Assembly: GCA_963762565.1 (NCBI GenBank)
Contig: CAVXLD010000010.1
Coordinates: 477,514 to 541,513, forward strand
DNA length: 64,000 bases
Reading direction: 5' to 3'
From: an uncultured Verrucomicrobiae bacterium
Lineage (GTDB): Bacteria > Verrucomicrobiota > Verrucomicrobiia > Chthoniobacterales > JAFAMB01
A model generated the notes under the pieces. It was not told the DNA's origin. It was given only the letters and a program-made list of their open reading frames with translations, and searched no databases. The translations under genes and the position numbers were made by a program. Shown here one piece after another: positions 11,510-46,871 of the stretch; positions within the stretch are counted from its first letter, which is position 1, and each line of letters starts with the position of its first letter.

Positions 11510-11730
11510 GGTAGGGCGAAAATCTCGACGCTCCCAGGACAAGTCTCCTATCTGCAGGTTTCGCGCGCCGGATTTGAGCCGCGCCGTGCGGCTAATATCT
11601 AACCTGACTTGGAATCGCCCATATCGACAATATCCTGGGCAATGAGACGGCCACGCAATGGCTCAAATCGGGACCGACGATGGCTGCGAGGTGGAAAACA
11701 AAAATGCGAGCCGAGATTTTTGCCCGGCCG
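11510..11730. repeat. GGTAGGGCGAAAA-family palindromic element
   Basis: Left arm matches the reverse complement of 29581-29663; degenerate right arm ggctcaaatcgg..cgagatttttgccc. Confidence 0.7.
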
Positions 11731-16164: not shown

Positions 16165-16451
16165 TCGTCCCCGTTCTCGTCGTCGTCCTCGATTCGAGCG
16201 GAGTTGGTCCAACGCCTGGAGGGGAGCCGCTTTATAGTGTGGCAGCTCTGTCGGATGGCAGCAGGCGGCTCCCGGGAATTACCCATCGCTTGCAGCTCTG
16301 CCGCCTTTCGTTCCAAACCAATGGAGACGATGGATAAAACGTGGCGCTGGGTTATTCGCGGGAGCCGCCTGTTCTCTTCGTCTTTCGTCACATCAAGCCC
16401 TGGTCCAAATGTAGCGAGGTCGTCCGATACGCCCCAAAGCGGCTCCCCTCC
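16165..16451. repeat. TCGTCC array plus two-layer nested inverted repeat
   Basis: ggaggggagccgcttt (16218)/aaagcggctcccctcc (16436) enclosing 16261-16289/16344-16371; half copy at 33345-33452. Confidence 0.8.
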
Positions 16452-18782: not shown

Positions 18783-19548
18783 CGGGCAATTTTTCAGTCA
18801 TCGGACCTTCAACTCCGCCGGTAACAAATTGACGAACGACAGGGTCGTCCGAGCTCTTGAATTCTTCCGGATCACTGTCCTGGATAATCGTACCCTGATA
18901 AAGCATGGCCATGCGCGTGGCGATCCTAAAAGCGCTGTCCATCTCATGGGTAACGATAACCGAAGTCGTATTTGTCTTCTCCGTGAGATTAATAATCAAT
19001 TCATCGATCACCGAGCTCATAACCGGATCGAGTCCAGCCGAGGGCTCATCGAACAACACCAACTCAGGATCGAGCATGAGCGCTCGAGCCAAGCTGACCC
19101 GTTTTCGCATACCGCCGCTAAGCTCAGAAGGCATTTTGCTTTCGGTCCCACTCATCCCAACCATGGCCAGCTTTCCTTCAACCAAGTTATCGATTTCGCT
19201 TTCCGATTTTCGGCCCAATTCGCGTATCGGCAGAGCTAGGTTATCCCTGACATTCAAGGAGCTGATTAGAGCCGAGTATTGGTACACCATCCCTATTCTA
19301 CTTCGTAGCAAATTCAGTTTGCTTCTACTTAAGCGACTCACTCGCAAATGCTTGTACTTTATTTCACCTCCGGTTGGCTTCAAGATCCCTAGAATCAATC
19401 GCAACATCGTACTTTTCCCTCCCCCGCTTTGACCGAGAATGACCAAGCGATCTTGAGGAAAGATTTTTAGTTCGATCCCATTGAGGACAGGTTTCCCGGC
19501 AAACGCTAGGAAAACCTGGTTCAAGTGGACCAATGGCGTCTCCGTCAT
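18766..19548 (-). CDS. mlaF: MlaF-type ABC ATPase
   Basis: GQSGGGKS, LSGGMRKRVSLARAL, FDEPSAGLDP. Confidence 0.88.
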   Translation of the reverse strand: MTETPLVHLNQVFLAFAGKPVLNGIELKIFPQDRLVILGQSGGGKSTMLRLILGILKPTGGEIKYKHLRVSRLSRSKLNLLRSRIGMVYQYSALISSLNVRDNLALPIRELGRKSESEIDNLVEGKLAMVGMSGTESKMPSELSGGMRKRVSLARALMLDPELVLFDEPSAGLDPVMSSVIDELIINLTEKTNTTSVIVTHEMDSAFRIATRMAMLYQGTIIQDSDPEEFKSSDDPVVRQFVTGGVEGPMTEKLPDADNT

Positions 19549-20336
19549 TTGGTGTACTGAGTAACGATTACATTAAAAAGGCTATCGAACCCGATCACGC
19601 TCGTGATCGCGATCACCACGCTCCCTGTGGTGGCTCGGCCGACACCTTCCGCTCCGCCGGTGACCGTGAGGCCCTTAAAACACGCGATGAGCCCGATAAC
19701 CAGACCGAAGAAAGCAGCTTTGAAAAATCCGATTACGATATCGTTAACCAACAGACTGCTCAGAACCGCGTCGAAAAAGAACGCTGGCACGATGTTTAGG
19801 GTCACCCAAGAAATCAGACACGAACCTATCAGCGCTGCCACAACCGAACAAACCGAGAGACAGGGCATCGCCCCCACAATCGCTACCAGGCGCGGAGCCA
19901 CCAGGAACCGGAGCGGCCCTATCCCCATGGCTTCGATGGCTTCCACTTCCTCAGCGACTTGCATGGTGCCGAGCTCAGCTGTAAACGCGGCGCCGATTCT
20001 CGCTGCCAGCACAATTCCGGTTATCAGAGGCCCAAGCTCCCTGGTAAACGCAATCGCAATCAGGGAAGGGATCAACCGCTCCACTCCAAACTTCAACAGC
20101 TGATATCCCGTCAGCAACGCCATGGTTAACCCCAGAAAGAAGGAGACCATCAAAACCAACGGCACCGACCCGACCGCAGTACGATCTGTTTGGGTAAAGA
20201 GAGCGGAAAGCCGAAACGGCAAACGTCCCCGCCGAACGTTGTCGGCCATCTCTTCTGCAGTATTCAGCAGAAGCCAAACGATACTCCCCAGGTTAACCAG
20301 GGCATTCCGCGTCAAGAAACCGATCCGATAGAGCAA
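19545..20336 (-). CDS. mlaE: MlaE-type ABC permease
   Basis: RELGPLITG, AELGTM, GAEGVGRATT. Confidence 0.9.
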   Translation of the reverse strand: MLYRIGFLTRNALVNLGSIVWLLLNTAEEMADNVRRGRLPFRLSALFTQTDRTAVGSVPLVLMVSFFLGLTMALLTGYQLLKFGVERLIPSLIAIAFTRELGPLITGIVLAARIGAAFTAELGTMQVAEEVEAIEAMGIGPLRFLVAPRLVAIVGAMPCLSVCSVVAALIGSCLISWVTLNIVPAFFFDAVLSSLLVNDIVIGFFKAAFFGLVIGLIACFKGLTVTGGAEGVGRATTGSVVIAITSVIGFDSLFNVIVTQYTK

Positions 20337-20381
20337 ACGCTACTTATTAGGCCGAGCGGGCGGGGAATCAAGGCTGATTAG

Positions 20382-20595
20382 TTGGTAGGGCGAGGCTCCC
20401 GAATACCTCGACGCCGCAACGAAGCAAAATAGCTTGCCGTGATGATTCGGTACGTTAGGCCTGAGATCGCGCCGAGCCGGGGGTTGCGCTAACCACGGCT
20501 CGGCGCGCACCAAGGTCCAACAAACTATGCGGCAGCGGTAAAGCCGGTCGCGCTGTGAAAATACTTCCCTCTTTGCGGGAGCCTCGCCCTACCAA
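20382..20595. repeat. GTAG-type REP doublet with ~70-nt unique segment in each arm (copy 1)
   Basis: ttggtagggcgaggctcccg..cgccgagccg / cggctcggcg..cgggagcctcgccctaccaa. Confidence 0.9.
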
Positions 20596-20610
20596 GCCAC
20601 CTCTCACCTC

Positions 20611-22368
20611 TCACTTCTCACTAATCACTTCCTCCACGTCGCTCTCCGTCACAAACAACCCACTCTGATACAACCGGCGATAGATTCCGTTGGCGAGCAA
20701 TAGCTCATCGTGTGTGCCGCGCTCCACAATCGCGCCGTCTTCCAGTACCAGGATCTGGTCTGCCTGGCGGATCGTCGAGAGTCGATGAGCGATCACAAAA
20801 CTAGTTCTCCCCAGAAGCAGGCGTTGCAGAGCCGCTTGAATCTCGCGCTCCGTCTCCGTATCCACGCTGGCTGTCGCTTCATCCAGCACCAAGATCGGTG
20901 GATCTTTCAAAAGGGCGCGCGCGATCGAAAGCCTCTGTTTCTCGCCTACACTGAGTTTGACTCCGCGCTCGCCAACCTTTGAGTCCAGCCCTCCAGGCAG
21001 TTTTCTGACAAAATCGATCGCAAATGCGGCGGTTAACGCTTCCTCCAACTCTTCCTCAGAAGCGCTCGGATTACCGAAGAGAAGATTCTCCCTGACCGAG
21101 CCGTTAAATAAGAAGGTCTCCTGGGTGACAAACCCAACGATTCGACGCAGCGTCGCTTTCGAGAACTGCCGGATCGAGCGTTCGTCCACCAGAATCTCGC
21201 CTCCTTGAGGACCGAGCTCATAGAAACGGAGCAAGAGACTAACCAAAGTCGATTTCCCAGCTCCGGTGTGACCCACCAACGCGATCATTTGCCCAGGCGA
21301 AGCCGATAACGAGATGTTTCGAAGTGCCAGCCGCCCGGGTACATAGCCGAAACTAACGTTCCTATATTCAACGGCGCCCAACGGGCTAAAATCCTCATCC
21401 GGAGCAGAGGTCTCCTCGCGGGGTTGATCCATGATCTCGTACAAACGATCAGCCGCCGCCCGGCTGCTCTGCACCATTTGATTCAAGCTATGGAGCCGGC
21501 TCACTGGTTCATACAGGAAACGCACCAGAATCAGGCTGCCGACTAGTTCTCCCACCCCCATCTGCCCATGCAAGACGGCGTTTCCGCCAAACCCGGTCAC
21601 CATGACGAGTCCGCATCCGGCGAAAAACTCCATACTGGGATCGTAGATCGCCCAGGCTTTCATCACGACGAGAGTCGCCTCCTTTAACTTAGCTCCTGCC
21701 TGGTTAAATCGTCCATGTTCCGCGTTTTCCCTCGCGTAAGCTTTGATCTGCCGGATCCCGGCCAAGTTGTCATGCAGGAGAGCGTTCATCCCAGAGGCCG
21801 CTTTTCTCTGCCGGGCATAACGGGATTTGGCCGTCAAAGTGTACCAAAGCGCGCCTGCGACCAGAAAGGGGAGCGGGGTCAGAGCCAAGAAACCCAACCA
21901 AGGCTCTGTGGCAATCAGCATGCCGGCCACAATGATGATTTGCAAAACGGCGACACTGCCTTGCTCAATTCCGTCGATAAGGACTCGCTCGACCGCATTA
22001 ACATCCTCAACGACCCGGGTCATGATATCTCCGGTCGCCTGTTGATCGAACCAAGACAACGGCAGCCGTTGAATGTGGTTATACAGATCGCTTCTCAGAT
22101 CGAAGATAACGCGTTGTTCAAAGGTGTTATTGAGGAGAATCCGCAGACCGTTAGCTAGGTTTTGCACCCCGAAAGCACCCAACGCCACCAGAGCCAGAGG
22201 GAGGATCAACTCCGGATGATGCCCGCGCACACCATCGTCGATGATCCGCTGTGTCACCCCGGGAAACACCACTACCGTGACCGTCGCCAGGATCGCAAAC
22301 CCAAGGTTCCCGGCCGCTAACCACGGATATCGGCGCAAATAACGAAAAACACGAAAGATCGTCGGCAT
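20611..22368 (-). CDS. ABC exporter, fused permease/ATPase (MsbA/MdlB-like)
   Basis: TM domain plus GHTGAGKS, LSVGEKQR, LDEATASVD. Confidence 0.92.
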   Translation of the reverse strand: MPTIFRVFRYLRRYPWLAAGNLGFAILATVTVVVFPGVTQRIIDDGVRGHHPELILPLALVALGAFGVQNLANGLRILLNNTFEQRVIFDLRSDLYNHIQRLPLSWFDQQATGDIMTRVVEDVNAVERVLIDGIEQGSVAVLQIIIVAGMLIATEPWLGFLALTPLPFLVAGALWYTLTAKSRYARQRKAASGMNALLHDNLAGIRQIKAYARENAEHGRFNQAGAKLKEATLVVMKAWAIYDPSMEFFAGCGLVMVTGFGGNAVLHGQMGVGELVGSLILVRFLYEPVSRLHSLNQMVQSSRAAADRLYEIMDQPREETSAPDEDFSPLGAVEYRNVSFGYVPGRLALRNISLSASPGQMIALVGHTGAGKSTLVSLLLRFYELGPQGGEILVDERSIRQFSKATLRRIVGFVTQETFLFNGSVRENLLFGNPSASEEELEEALTAAFAIDFVRKLPGGLDSKVGERGVKLSVGEKQRLSIARALLKDPPILVLDEATASVDTETEREIQAALQRLLLGRTSFVIAHRLSTIRQADQILVLEDGAIVERGTHDELLLANGIYRRLYQSGLFVTESDVEEVISEK

Positions 22369-22421
22369 TCGAACTATTTCCTACTAACCGCATCGGAAAA
22401 GCTCGCAACCGAAAACGCCGA

Positions 22422-22548
22422 ACTAGGAGCTAGGAGCTAGAATCCAGGAGCTAGGAGGTCCACCTCTCACCTCTCACCCGTTCGACGCGCTAAATACCTG
22501 CTCAGGGCAGGCCTTTCACCTTTCACCAATCACTAATCACCAATCACC
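22422..22548. repeat. Composite heptamer arrays (AGGAGCT, TCTCACC/AATCACC) with nested 35-nt element
   Basis: Arrays directly visible; interruption at 22478-22512. Confidence 0.8.
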
Positions 22549-23084
22549 GAACCTTCCACACGCCACGTTCCCGGCGCCAAATCGCCTAGCCACAAACCAC
22601 CGATGCGAACCCGGACCAGACGTAACGTCGGATACCCAACCGCAGCCGTCATTCGCCGAACCTGCCTATTCTTTCCTTCCATTAACACCATGCTCAACCA
22701 GGAGTCCGGCACCGTCTTCCGATAGCGTATGGGAGGATCTCGAGGCCCAATCGGCGGCGCCGGATCCAGTCGCCTGACGCGGCACGGCAACGTCCTGCGC
22801 CCCTGGATCAAAATTCCGGTTTCTAACCGGCGAAGCTCTTTGTCGCCCGGCAAGCCCTCGACTTGAACCCAATATTCTCGTTCATGTCCACGTTCAGGAT
22901 TCAAAATCCGCGCATTCCACCGAGCCTCGTCACTGAGCAACAAAAGTCCCTCTGAGTCAGCATCCAGTCTCCCAATCGGATAAACAGCCGGAGGAAAACC
23001 GAAGCCGGCCAGGCTCGGACGGTTTGAACCGTCTGAGGTGAACTGTGAGACTACGCCAAATGGCTTGTGAAAGGCGATCAACAC
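22533..23084 (-). CDS. rluE: rRNA pseudouridine synthase (RluE-like)
   Basis: HKPFGVVSQF, GRLDADSEGL, RDPPIRYR, EGKNRQVRRMTAAVG. Confidence 0.85.
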   Translation of the reverse strand: MLIAFHKPFGVVSQFTSDGSNRPSLAGFGFPPAVYPIGRLDADSEGLLLLSDEARWNARILNPERGHEREYWVQVEGLPGDKELRRLETGILIQGRRTLPCRVRRLDPAPPIGPRDPPIRYRKTVPDSWLSMVLMEGKNRQVRRMTAAVGYPTLRLVRVRIGGLWLGDLAPGTWRVEGSVIGD

Positions 23085-23088
23085 GTGT

Positions 23089-23306
23089 TTGGTAGGGCGA
23101 GGCTCCCGAATGACGATTTACATTCGCAGGGCTCCTAAACGGTCACAACAACATCATAAGCAACGCCGACCGCTCGCCGAGCCGGACCCAGCGCGAAACC
23201 GGGGGGCAACGGCTCGGCAGGCTAGCGACCTATTGTGCTAAGGATCAGGAACCGCTGTGGGCTTCGGAAAGAGCGCTAGATTATTCCGGAGCCTCGCCAT
23301 CTACCA
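23089..23306. repeat. GTAG-type REP doublet with ~68-nt unique segment in each arm (copy 2)
   Basis: Same conserved modules as 20382-20595, different intervening sequence. Confidence 0.88.
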
Positions 23307-23326
23307 CCGATCGCACCAGGTACGAC

Positions 23327-25849
23327 ATGGACATTGCATTACCCATTTTCGAGCTCGAGGACAAGATTGTCGAAACCCTGGCCGAAACACCTCGCTTGAT
23401 CTTGCAAGCGCCTACCGGCTCCGGCAAATCGACTCAGGTGCCCCAGATCTTGCTCGACCACGGTTTGGCTGGGCACGGCCAAATTGTCGTGCTTCAGCCG
23501 AGACGCTTGCCGACCCGTTTACTGGCGGCTCGAATCGCGCAAGAACGTGATGCGGTTTTGGGCGAAGAAGTCGGGTACCAGATCCGTTTGGATAATGTCA
23601 CTTCTTCAGCAACGCGGATCCGTTTTGTTACCGAAGGGGTCTTACTGCGTCAAATGGTGAGCAACCCCCGGCTAGCCGGAATCTCGGTCATCATTTTTGA
23701 CGAGTTTCATGAACGCCATCTTTATAGCGATATTGCTTTGGCCCGGGCTCTTGAGATCCAGGAGACCGATCGCCCGGATCTAAAGCTGGTTGTGATGTCG
23801 GCGACGCTCGATACCGCACAACTGCAAACCTATCTGAATCCCACCACAGTACTTACCTCAGTCGGACGCACGTTCCCGGTTGAGATTGAATACCTGAAAA
23901 GACAAGTGGTTGACGAACCGCCATGGGAATTAGCGGTCGACGCTCTCCATCAAGCCGGCCAGGACGACGGTGACGTGCTTATCTTCATGCCGGGAGCCTA
24001 CGAGATAGCTCGTACCATCGAGGAAATTAAACGCTCTCGATTCGACGGCGTTGTATTACCGCTGCACGGCGATTTATCGCCTCGGTCGCAGGACGCGGCG
24101 GTTGCCACGTACGACAAACGGAAAATCGTTGTTTCAACCAATGTCGCTGAGACCTCGCTCACCATCGACGGTGTTACTCTCGTCATCGATAGCGGTTTAG
24201 CGAAAATCGCGAAGTACGATCCCCATCGCGGAATCAACACCTTGATTCCGGAGAAAATCAGCCGGGCATCGGCGGACCAACGAGCTGGCCGAGCCGGCAG
24301 AACTGCTCCAGGGCGCTGCATTCGCCTCTGGTCAGAACGAGATCATTTGAACCGGCGACCACAGGATTTGCCGGAGGTAAAGCGCCTGGACTTAGCCGAA
24401 GTCATGCTGAATCTGAAGGCAGCCGGTGTATCGGACATCAATCGGTTCCGGTGGCTTGAGCGCCCCGATGCTCGATCGCTGGCCCGAGCAATCGAATTAC
24501 TCGCTGATTTAGGCGCGATTGACAGGCACACGGAAGAAATCACCAGTTTAGGCAACCGGATGCTTTCGTTTCCGGTACATCCGCGCTATTCCCGCATGCT
24601 GTTGATGGCTAACGAGCTTGGGTGCGTATCGACGATCGCCCTGATCGCAGCGCTCACCCAGGAACGGTACCTTTTGCGCCGGGCAGAAAACAAACAGATG
24701 GAGCACGACCGTGAGCTTCTATTGGGCGGCGAAGCGGAATCGGATTTTTTCGTGTTGATACGCGCATGGCTCTACGCGAACCAACATGGCGCCGAACAAG
24801 CCAGACGCCTCGGGATCCGCTATTCGGTCTCTCAACAGGTCAGACGCCTGTTCGATCAATTTCTCGATATCGCGAAGGCCGAGGGGTTAGACATTTCCAG
24901 GCCGCCAAACGATTTCAACGCGGAATCGCTTGGTAAATGCTTGCTGGTCGGCTTCTCGGATCACCTAAGCCGGCGGGTCGACGCAGGCACGCTACGATGC
25001 GACCTGGTGCACGAGCGCCGCGGAGTTCTCGCTCGGGAAAGCGTCGTTCAAAAGAGTCCGCTTTTTGTCGCGGCGGAGATTCGGGAAATACAAGGTAGAG
25101 ACGAAGAGCTTTTAATCTTGCTATCGCTCGCAACCGCCGTGCGAGAAGAATGGTTACGCGAACTCTATCCTGAGGATTTTCAGGAAACTCGCGCGGAGTA
25201 TTACGACCCGGCTTTACGTCGAGTAGTGGGCCGCACCGACCAGATCTTCCGCGACTTGGTCCTACACAGTCGTAAGAGCGACCCTCGCGGCGACGACCTG
25301 ACTTCATCGACCCTCGCCGCGGAGGTGATCAACGGTCGTTGCCCATTGGACCATTGGGATCATGAGGTCGAGCAGTGGATAACGCGGGTCAATTGCCTGC
25401 ACGATTGGTGTCCGGAATTGGAGGTGCCAGAGATTGATCAGGAAGCTCGGAACTATTTGATCACCCAGATTTGCGAGGGCGCCACCGGTTATCGCGAAAT
25501 CAAGGAACGTCCGGTATGGCCCGTGCTCAAAGCATGGCTGCCGCCCTCAAAACTGCCGTTGGTCGATCGTTTGGCGCCGGCCCGATTCGAGCTTCCCGGT
25601 GGCAAACGCCTCAAGCTCTCATATACACGAGGTCAACCGCCAGTTTTGTCAGCCCGAATCCAAGACCTATACGGTGTGGAACAATCTCTCAAAGTGTGCG
25701 CTGGACGAATCTCGGTGCTCATTCATGTACTAGCTCCAAACAATCGCCCCATTCAGATTACGCAGGAGCTAACCACCTTTTGGCGCGAAGCCTATCCGAA
25801 GCTCAAGCTGGAGCTTCAGCGGAAATATCCAAAACATGAATGGCGCTAG
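23327..25849 (+). CDS. hrpB: ATP-dependent RNA helicase HrpB
   Basis: APTGSGKST, DEFHER, MSAT, STNVAETS, QRAGRAGR, terminal KYPKHEW. Confidence 0.95.
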   Translation: MDIALPIFELEDKIVETLAETPRLILQAPTGSGKSTQVPQILLDHGLAGHGQIVVLQPRRLPTRLLAARIAQERDAVLGEEVGYQIRLDNVTSSATRIRFVTEGVLLRQMVSNPRLAGISVIIFDEFHERHLYSDIALARALEIQETDRPDLKLVVMSATLDTAQLQTYLNPTTVLTSVGRTFPVEIEYLKRQVVDEPPWELAVDALHQAGQDDGDVLIFMPGAYEIARTIEEIKRSRFDGVVLPLHGDLSPRSQDAAVATYDKRKIVVSTNVAETSLTIDGVTLVIDSGLAKIAKYDPHRGINTLIPEKISRASADQRAGRAGRTAPGRCIRLWSERDHLNRRPQDLPEVKRLDLAEVMLNLKAAGVSDINRFRWLERPDARSLARAIELLADLGAIDRHTEEITSLGNRMLSFPVHPRYSRMLLMANELGCVSTIALIAALTQERYLLRRAENKQMEHDRELLLGGEAESDFFVLIRAWLYANQHGAEQARRLGIRYSVSQQVRRLFDQFLDIAKAEGLDISRPPNDFNAESLGKCLLVGFSDHLSRRVDAGTLRCDLVHERRGVLARESVVQKSPLFVAAEIREIQGRDEELLILLSLATAVREEWLRELYPEDFQETRAEYYDPALRRVVGRTDQIFRDLVLHSRKSDPRGDDLTSSTLAAEVINGRCPLDHWDHEVEQWITRVNCLHDWCPELEVPEIDQEARNYLITQICEGATGYREIKERPVWPVLKAWLPPSKLPLVDRLAPARFELPGGKRLKLSYTRGQPPVLSARIQDLYGVEQSLKVCAGRISVLIHVLAPNNRPIQITQELTTFWREAYPKLKLELQRKYPKHEWR

Positions 25850-38304: not shown

Positions 38305-38541
38305 GGTCGCCACCGTGGAGCGCTGCCTCGCTTGCGAGGCCGTAAGGGGTCGCCACCCGTGGAGCGCTGCCTCGCTTGCGAGGCCGTGAGGAGCAAGGAG
38401 ACGTCGTATGGCACACCCCCTCTCGCGTCCTGCGCTCTATACCGTTCCGACAGTCCGATGCAGAGCGCAGACCGAAATAAGATATACGTTACGTAGTCCC
38501 CCTGCTTACCACGGCCTCGCAAGCGAGGCAGCGCTCCACGT
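38305..38541. repeat. REP-like cluster, CGTGGAGCGCTGCCTCGCTTGCGAGGCCGT family (2 direct + 1 inverted)
   Basis: Units 38305-38343 and 38345-38387; inverted about 38510-38540. Confidence 0.92.
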
Positions 38542-46582: not shown

Positions 46583-46871
46583 GGGTCGCCACCCGTGGAG
46601 CGTTGCCTCGCTGGCGAGGCCGTAGGGGTCGCCACCCGTGGAGCGCTGCCTCGCTTGCGAGGCCGTAGGGGTCGCCACCCGTGGAGCGTTGCCTCGCTTG
46701 CGAGGCCGTGGTGAACAGAGCTGCTAGCGCGCCAATTGCGTTTGATGGTTTGGCTCTGCCGTGTGCGATAGAGGCCTTCGGAACGTTACATAGCGCAGAC
46801 AGCGGTAAGGACGCACTTATGAATTCCCCCCTTTGTTCACCACGGCCTCGCAAGCAAGGCAACGCTCCACT
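46581..46871. repeat. REP-like cluster (three 43-bp tandem units + 1 inverted)
   Basis: 46581-46623, 46624-46666, 46667-46709; inverted about 46841-46870. Confidence 0.95.

Follow-up and report, generated by a model that had tools for sequence, protein, structure and literature searches.

Hairpin-forming doublets of repetitive extragenic palindromic (REP) sequences, termed REPINs, and the REP-associated tyrosine transposases (RAYTs) are known mostly from Proteobacteria, with repeats of roughly 70-110 nt. Here we examine two elements, copy 1 and copy 2, in a 64,000-nt stretch of DNA from an uncultured member of the Chthoniobacterales (the window; positions 477514-541513 of contig C10 in the 6.1-Mb, 15-contig assembly G000). 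We find that they very probably belong to a REPIN-like family, family A, whose gene-less members form long DNA hairpins and are made of both ends of a RAYT unit. Bertels and Rainey 2011 (PMC3116915) describe REPIN spacers as less conserved, with length and hairpin capacity seeming to be what matters, and give 71 bp between the two 16-mers of the Pseudomonas GI REPIN. REPs tagged with GTAG have a GTGG variant, reported for Opitutus terrae (Verrucomicrobia) by Di Nocera, De Gregorio and Rocco 2013 (PMC3733652). For a Marinomonas RAYT, Corneloup et al. 2021 (PMC8266576) describe pairing between guide and cleavage site, with GTAG to GTGG changes.

Both window elements consist of two short modules mirrored around a loop and separated, in each arm, by a segment of about 70 nt. 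We defined the terminal (T) module as GGTRGGGCGAGGCTCC (T16) and the inner (I) module as GCCGAGCC/GGCTCGGC (I8), and read the segment coordinates in the window by hand. Copy 1 (20382..20595) is an intact, complete element of a compact class (210 nt plus TT/AA) and has the layout TT-GGTAGGGCGAGGCTCCCG, 71-nt segment, GCCGAGCC, 18-nt loop, GGCTCGGC, 73-nt segment, CGGGAGCCTCGCCCTACC-AA. Its left T module, an exact 18-mer match carrying the GTAG tag, lies at 20384..20401 on the plus strand, and its right module (T'), an exact inverted copy of the left one, at 20576..20593 on the minus strand. Between them stand the 71-nt L segment (20400..20470), the apical hairpin formed by the two inner modules and the loop (20471..20504), and the 73-nt R segment (20505..20577); hand-read coordinates and family statistics together identify the L segment as a variable subterminal spacer, and the R segment is of the same kind. 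Copy 2 (23089..23305) is damaged at its right end. An exact left T module (23091..23108, plus strand) is followed by a 69-nt L segment (23107..23175), an apical hairpin with a 27-nt loop between GCCGAGCC and GGCTCGGC (23176..23218), a 69-nt R segment (23219..23287) and a degenerate right T module, GGAGCCTCGCC-AT-CTACC, which has a 2-nt insertion and escapes a search at <=3 mismatches (23288..23305, minus strand).

The T-module 18-mer occurs three times in the window at <=3 mismatches against 0.05 expected, and none of 100 shuffled sequences reaches three. Folded as single-stranded DNA, copies 1 and 2 give z = -6.4 and -3.2, with both terminal and apical stems formed and none of 200 shuffles equal. 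The original prediction had described these two mirrored-module copies, with segments of about 70, 72, 68 and 68 nt; both layouts are found, and the lengths become 71, 73, 69 and 69 nt under our slightly shorter module definitions. Its remark that three segments begin with AAT holds when segments are read from the outside inwards, and corresponds to a GAA(t) extension of the T module that is conserved in the family consensus.

The same arrangement recurs genome-wide. With GGTRGGGCGAGGCTCC at <=2 mismatches we found 553 family-A arms (282 of them in plus and 271 in minus orientation), giving 215 plus/minus pairs within 1200 nt of each other and 123 unpaired, or solo, arms. Both inner modules, at <=1 mismatch, are present in 178 of the 197 pairs that measure 150-340 nt. 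Among 177 cleanly parsed copies, the L segment measures 70.98 +/- 1.77 nt and the R segment 71.37 +/- 2.14 nt, with 157 and 151 of the 177, respectively, falling at 69-73 nt. The apex, or loop, measures 46.6 +/- 31.7 nt, being 18-20 nt in 77 copies and 118 nt at most. Variation in element length is therefore confined to the apex, and long apices extend the palindrome (GGCCCAGCG...CGCTGGGCC) around a variable core. The claim of a defined point in every arm is borne out at this scale: the point lies between terminal and inner module, and the length of the segment there is constrained.

Segments, for all their constant length, can hardly be aligned with one another. The mean pairwise identity is 0.565 for L and 0.564 for R, against 0.537 for a control that set L against shuffled reverse-complemented R with the identical aligner; for the four window segments the original prediction had noted faint mutual similarity beside near-identical modules. 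A consensus of 83 compact copies retains weakly conserved segment blocks (GAAtGgCC, TCGCAG and GCaAgGCCTaAAAgCGC), and in it the commonest base at each L position complements the commonest base at the mirrored R position. There are small segment subfamilies; identity reaches 93, 88 and 87% in the closest pairs, some of which lie a few kb apart, and the nearest neighbour of a copy by its L segment is also nearest by its R segment in 16/177 copies. In a register-based test, pairing within a copy's own arms exceeded permuted pairing beside both modules (z up to 7.1 and 6.2), and the mid-arm excess was slight. Complementary consensus, own-arm pairing and close pairs all speak for a shared ancestry of the segments.

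The tag at the outer end is variable in a correlated manner. Its position 3 is A in 88 and G in 103 of 193 elements (GGTAGGG or GGTGGGG), covaries with the opposite end, and is Watson-Crick paired in 163/193: 75 copies have GTAG..CTAC ends and 88 have GTGG..CCAC ends, with 13 G.T and 13 A.C intermediates. These covarying ends fit stem pairing and also guide/cleavage-site pairing of the kind that PMC8266576 describes for Marinomonas.

The family has a transposase partner. A master unit of 756 nt, on the same contig and 460 kb upstream of the window copies (G000:C10:17254-18009), consists of T, 69 nt, GCCGAGCC, 570 nt holding a RAYT gene, GGCTCGGC, 69 nt and T'. The gene within it is a 152-aa open reading frame (ORF), P0002 (G000:C10:17378-17836, minus strand), that matches the NCBIfam model NF047646, 'REP-associated tyrosine transposase', at 84.5 bits (cut-off 80; E 6.4e-24) and E. 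coli TnpA-REP (PDB 4ER8; E 6e-7) in an alignment that brings together the HUH (HLH/HMH) and Y..NPV motifs of the two proteins. In G022, a genome from a different genus of the same family, a 156-aa ORF, P0001 (L148:972-1439), is enclosed by arms 646 nt apart, and its best homologue in G000 is the P0002 locus (58% identical, E 5e-62). Orthologues of P0002 occur in the sister genomes G002 (83% identity; both arms, spacers of 70 and 68 nt), G004 (87%) and G003 (80%), the last two each with one arm, a 68-nt spacer and a contig end on the other side. G005, which is 81% complete, gave no P0002 match at E 1e-20, and G001 holds a 46% identical homologue whose locus contains the nonamer GGTRGGGCG once; among the sister genomes, the full-arm scan covered the loci of G002, G003 and G004. 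G000 itself has a single close RAYT copy; its second-best homologue, at 47% identity, stands between ends of another repeat family, F.

An initial scan with Pfam PF01797 (Y1_Tnp) returned 12 matches in G000 and 23 in G001-G005, none flanked by family-A arms, and suggested that there was no RAYT partner; the G022 homologue overturned this. The scan had missed the partner because P0002 is too diverged for the model: NF047646 finds both P0001 and P0002, and neither has a Pfam match, so that Pfam-only scans under-count RAYTs in this group. Of 29 PF01797 loci, one had a family-A arm within ~1.5 kb, a stray one, and the strong PF01797 matches bear low-copy REP hairpins of their own. Beside the 123 solo arms no ORF was recurrent (79 ORFs, with just three similar pairs at 22-28% identity).

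Since the master unit carries 69-nt segments and the dispersed copies share its ends, the segments are subterminal spacers of the left and right ends, and we conclude that they are inherited, not captured, DNA. The fixed point is a real feature, one of the lineage in evolutionary terms, present in the master unit and not acquired copy by copy. The dispersed copies would have kept the ends of that unit with the gene region reduced to an apex of 18-118 nt, and their apical hairpin stands where the master element has its RAYT gene. Segments would be inherited with each copy and then diverge at about the neutral rate or faster, as the T modules, tagged GTAG or GTGG, and the I modules are kept. By analogy with E. 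coli TnpA-REP, the RAYT would act on a folded single strand by reading the tag together with the stem modules, and it may use the GTAG-type tag as a guide, as the E. coli, Stenotrophomonas and Marinomonas systems suggest (PMC8266576). Arm length would be kept because T can meet T', and I meet I', only if both arms are in register. The targets of new copies would probably be pre-existing hairpins just past stop codons, entered at their dyad centre.

The insertion sites are consistent with such landing. Elements lie in a TT-element-AA context, with T at -1 in 172/192 and A at +1 in 173/192; the pattern is an inverted one, and a direct duplication was not found. Flank composition is mirrored, rich in G on the left and in C on the right, and many of 60 flank pairs are mutual inverted repeats (judged by eye and uncounted). 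In nested cases a newer element occupies the centre of an older hairpin, for example ...ATTTT-element-AAAAT..., and at one site that lacks the element in G003 and G005, both hold a plain hairpin with a 20-bp stem 3 nt past a stop codon where G000 has an element. With respect to genes, as delimited by crude ORF calls, 154 elements could be assigned to a class of gap, while another 38 run into a called ORF. Convergent gaps hold 51 elements against 30.8 expected, tandem gaps 85 against 92.3, and divergent gaps 18 against 30.9 (chi-square 19.2, p 7e-5). Elements in tandem gaps follow the upstream stop codon at a median of 17 nt and precede the next start by a median of 70 nt; 53/85 of them lie <=30 nt from the stop.

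To follow the elements in place, we compared orthologous sites. Between G002 and G005, aligned flanking blocks, mostly coding, are about 90-100% identical; in an orthologous element the modules are identical and the segment-bearing windows 0.68-0.80 identical, with third codon positions in the flank at 0.892 (n = 296). Fourteen public loci have a complete element with both flanks matched in G000, and G000 holds a complete element at 6 of them (5/13 distinct sites). In these six orthologous pairs of G000 and metagenome-assembled genome (MAG) loci, flanks are 78% and segments 65% identical and the modules show 9 mismatches in 288 positions, a count taken on copies filtered by their modules (<=2 mismatches in 16, <=1 in 8), which caps the number of mismatches. 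The other 8 sites in G000 comprise 2 empty sites, 1 family-B and 1 family-F element, 3 with other sequence and 1 with a left half split by a family-B element; no slowly decayed copy was found among those 8. When seven G000 sites were compared by hand with sister species, the element was kept at one, and the rest held a plain hairpin, mirrored 7-base arrays, family B or F, or a remnant GGTAGGGCG. Elements therefore appear to be either retained intact or replaced whole.

A separate observation concerns one longer region (L102; G000:C9:169300-189256). At its sites 2-5, compared with G002-G005, each species has a different hairpin, whether plain, built of inverted 7-base arrays such as (GTAAGCA)n..(TGCTTAC)n, or of family A, B or F. 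Most intergenic gaps there are unalignable even where the genomes are 92-98% identical in aligned, mostly coding, blocks.

Besides the module filter and the crude gene calls, several points weigh against the interpretation of the copies as RAYT-mobilised hairpins. The T module GGTRGGGCGAGGCTCC lacks self-complementarity and so is no small palindrome, and the sole local hairpin is the apex (I, loop, I'); the element thus departs from the definition of a REPIN as a doublet of REP hairpins. On the protein side, P0002 has no Pfam match even at E <=10, PF01797 included, and P0001 scores 63 bits on NF047646, below the cut-off of 80. An origin of the copies by deletion of the gene region is suggested by their layout, and transposition, excision and RAYT activity are here predictions from sequence. 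L and R segment lengths are uncorrelated (r = 0.06), and own L/R identity exceeds cross-pairing only slightly (0.591 vs 0.561; hairpin energy -47.7 vs -43.6 kcal/mol), so that a strict requirement for the arms to stay in register is weakly supported. The median nearest-neighbour segment identity is 0.69, the closest pair is 93% identical, and there are no near-identical copies; recent activity in G000 is therefore unsupported. Finally, module conservation in resident copies is unexplained by selection for mobility alone. Their retention might reflect a role for the host at mRNA 3' ends, ongoing contact with the RAYT, or gene conversion.

The first of these possibilities is the alternative that survives best. 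Also or instead, the elements may be 3'-end structures used by the host, in which a transcribed hairpin stops read-through or protects the mRNA 3' end; this would explain the kept modules. The short distance past stop codons and the room before the next start, the enrichment of convergent and depletion of divergent gaps, and the conservation of modules in place above that of flanking genes all speak for such a role, as does the finding that a hairpin is present at every orthologous site in sister species, albeit of a different kind (plain, mirrored 7-base arrays, family B or F). However, no T run follows the element, and the equal numbers of G.T and A.C tag pairs favour neither RNA strand. Moreover, 18 of the 154 classed copies, including window copy 2, lie between divergent genes, and the position could merely reflect the insertion target, namely terminator-like hairpins. 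We regard a 3'-end role as possible but doubtful.

A different reading of the fixed point comes from arms in which the modules are contiguous. Uninterrupted arms, whose existence the original prediction had raised, are indeed found outside the window's genus: in G022 the RAYT-flanking arms read GGTAGGGCGAGGCTCC-GCCCGAGCCG, with T and I adjoining, and two 70-nt mini-hairpins (T, I, loop, I', T') lack segments altogether, T and I forming a single hairpin. G000 itself has only one such arm, truncated, with adjacent T and I (C5:277229; 1/15 regex matches, the other 14 being chance similarity within L segments). The T-I spacing of family A is thus 0 nt in G022 versus 68-73 nt in the window's genus. 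Family B in G000 shows outer-inner spacing classes of about 28, 51 and 64 nt, lengths derived by hand from those of the matches. A 15-45-nt search window gave 70 family-B arms, nearly all of whose listed matches are 54 long, corresponding to a 28-nt spacer, and a 46-76-nt search window gave 126, of which most matches are 88-92 long (~64-nt spacer) and some 75-79 (~51 nt); the family-B arms that flank a RAYT belong to the 28-nt class. It is conceivable, though unlikely, that the T/I junction of RAYT hairpins is a recurrent symmetric growth point, at which fixed-length blocks are added at mirrored positions by a process on the folded hairpin (RAYT strand transfer or template switching between arms), the distance being held by an enzyme that bridges both modules. 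If so, REP hairpins would be extendable scaffolds with a molecular ruler.

We also weighed a family of structured non-coding RNA genes, with the segments forming a four-way junction or a ruler-constrained internal loop; the original prediction had proposed a ruler-constrained loop in a four-way junction. The stable folds of both copies and covariation at three stem positions beside the modules would suit it. Nevertheless, Rfam 15 gave no covariance-model match over the elements at E <=1 (positions 19500-24500), nor any thresholded match, the sole match (E 0.17) lying outside both copies. MAFFT and RNAalifold on the 83 compact copies, in which the segment alignment is too poor to judge pairing inside segments, returned a consensus fold of two conserved palindromic stems only, with a paired fraction of 96.9% for own against 94.3% for permuted arms. 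G.T pairs equal A.C pairs, copies number in the hundreds, their palindromic form precludes an orientation bias, and the transposase partner accounts for the conserved parts; an RNA gene family is very unlikely.

An ordinary terminal-inverted-repeat miniature inverted-repeat transposable element (MITE), mobilised by a DDE transposase and now decaying, would share the 18-20-nt terminal inverted repeats, the 210-300 nt size and the many solo arms, but is hardly plausible given inverted TT-element-AA flanks without a direct target duplication, the lack of a recurrent ORF beside the 123 solo arms, a RAYT as the only gene found between arms, and modules that show no decay in orthologous copies. Spacer-like capture of foreign or host DNA at the T/I junction by a length-measuring machinery, one of two mechanisms offered in the original prediction, is largely refuted and retains next to no probability. 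In its favour, segment length is tight while sequence is nearly random, G022 has uninterrupted arms and family B too has discrete spacer classes. Against it, only 2 of 354 trimmed segments match G000 outside family loci, both weakly, copy 1 (the only element queried) has no match at E <=0.01 in phage and plasmid collections, L and R consensus sequences are complementary, segments are shared by subfamilies, orthologues and strains (about 99% identical in strain contigs), and master RAYT units in four genomes already carry segments of 68-70 nt.

The strain comparison comes from short-read contigs of four soil-metagenome runs, which break at repeats. Contigs X7 (record 22) and X8 (record 28) span the L segment and apex of copy 2 with 3/297 and 6/585 differences, and contigs over the right half of copy 1 show 11 differences in 617 letters; segments are therefore stable at the strain level.

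Family A, in the reading of RAYT-derived hairpins that we prefer, is concentrated in one genus. Exact arms number 31 to 291 per genome in all 5 other genomes of the genus and 1 to 15 in 8/19 genomes from other genera of the family, and there are none in 16 genomes from other families of the order. Matching public contigs are titled as Verrucomicrobiota and Chthoniobacterales soil MAGs. Three further matches, in contigs assigned to Alphaproteobacteria, Acidobacteriota and Bryobacterales (L028, L047, L059), raised the candidate of cross-phylum transfer, which we rejected, these being probably chimeric or mis-binned contigs joined at the repeat: in each such genome all arms are on one contig, clustered or near a contig end, and at one locus a 361-nt stretch of 100% identity to G000 gives way to divergent sequence. 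A search of the literature on Chthoniobacter palindromic repeats and Verrucomicrobia miniature inverted repeats returned no description of these repeats.

As for the genes around the two copies, copy 1 follows an ABC transporter gene (ABC_membrane + ABC_tran; 20611..22368, minus strand), 15 nt past its stop codon, and lies 46 nt ahead of the start of the downstream MlaE permease gene (19545..20336, minus strand). Copy 2 occupies the gap between a divergent pair, a pseudouridine synthase gene (22533..23084, minus strand) and an HrpB-like helicase gene (23327..25849, plus strand), and adjoins both. The gap between the ABC transporter and pseudouridine synthase genes (22420-22548) is filled by mirrored arrays of tandem words (CTAGGAGCTAGGAG..., CCTCTCACC..., CACCAATCAC...), each word having 36-99 occurrences in the genome, and soil-run contig depth spikes there, up to 1676.

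At least three further high-copy families of palindromic repeats have modules in this stretch. Modules of family B stand in the window at 16218, 16439 and 33345, those of family C at 38325-38514, 46605-46845 and 55680, and those of family F at 11510 and 29649. The family-C core GCCTCGCAAGCGAGGC has about 430 occurrences genome-wide and the family-B end about 368. A RAYT paralogue at G000:C1:579814-580251 (L154), 34% identical to P0001, is flanked by bipartite family-B ends, and another at C7:542253-542699 (L153), 47% identical to P0001, by bipartite family-F ends; each of these large repeat families therefore has a transposase gene of its own. A 352-aa ORF with a Y1 domain (G000:C1:531701-532027) adjoins a family-C cluster located +700 to +900 nt downstream, and is a possible partner of the 430-copy family C. 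A separate repeat of ~300 nt (L102 9427-9725; G000:C9 about 178726-179024) has many copies at 74-87% identity and occurs in all four sister genomes searched, its copies being much more alike than those of family A.

These repeats matter in several respects. In a genus of soil Verrucomicrobiota, several families coexist whose elements are two to three times the size of typical REPINs, and bipartite ends with ~70-nt module spacing lend themselves to studying how a RAYT recognises a long folded substrate. Modules conserved beyond the neighbouring genes, with the DNA between them drifting to saturation, bear on the debate over a parasitic or a host-serving nature of REPIN-RAYT systems. For annotation, the RAYTs are caught by NCBIfam and missed by PF01797, and the repeats break short-read assemblies and coincide with probably chimeric MAG contigs.

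How, then, does family A compare with known systems? Two kinds of mobile element resemble it in part. Insertion sequences of the IS200/IS605 group use a Y1 HUH enzyme on folded single-stranded ends, with guide tetranucleotides and no target duplication, but they encode their own transposase and have unlike hairpins at the left and right ends, whereas family-A ends are mutual inverted copies and almost all copies are gene-less. Family A is also comparable with bacterial MITEs such as Correia/NEMIS, ERIC and RUP: both are intergenic, reach high copy number, fall in a similar size range, end in terminal inverted repeats and can form a long hairpin as RNA or DNA. Those MITEs, however, derive from DDE-transposase parents and duplicate their target directly, whereas family A has a RAYT parent and no direct duplication.

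The likeness to REPINs and RAYTs is closer. Family A consists of palindromic repeats without a gene, and the two conserved ends recur on either side of a RAYT gene present as a single close copy in G000; its ends are highly conserved and its interior is not, and the interior keeps its length and hairpin capacity; and it is extragenic, with common solo remnants and a GTAG-type tag at the outer end. In contrast to REPINs, family A is larger (210-300 nt) and its ends are bipartite, with outer T and inner I ~70 nt apart. It forms one long hairpin in place of a self-folding 20-40-nt REP palindrome at each end, its copies are highly diverged with no dominant master sequence, and families A, B and F coexist in one genome, each with its own RAYT paralogue. 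The GTAG-tagged REPs and 'TIRtrons' of PMC3733652, as described in the available sections of that paper, resemble it in the GTAG/GTGG tag, in lying mostly downstream of coding regions, in inserting inside other palindromes, and in tyrosine transposase genes flanked by long inverted repeats from repeat families. Their stems are 5-13 bp and their units 20-40 bp, however, and those same sections contain no family with two mirrored ~70-nt spacers per element and do not mention Chthoniobacterales. We conclude that this is a known kind of system, REPIN/RAYT and GTAG-tagged repeats, in an unusual form: very long, with bipartite ends, mirrored ~70-nt spacers and several co-resident families in Chthoniobacterales.

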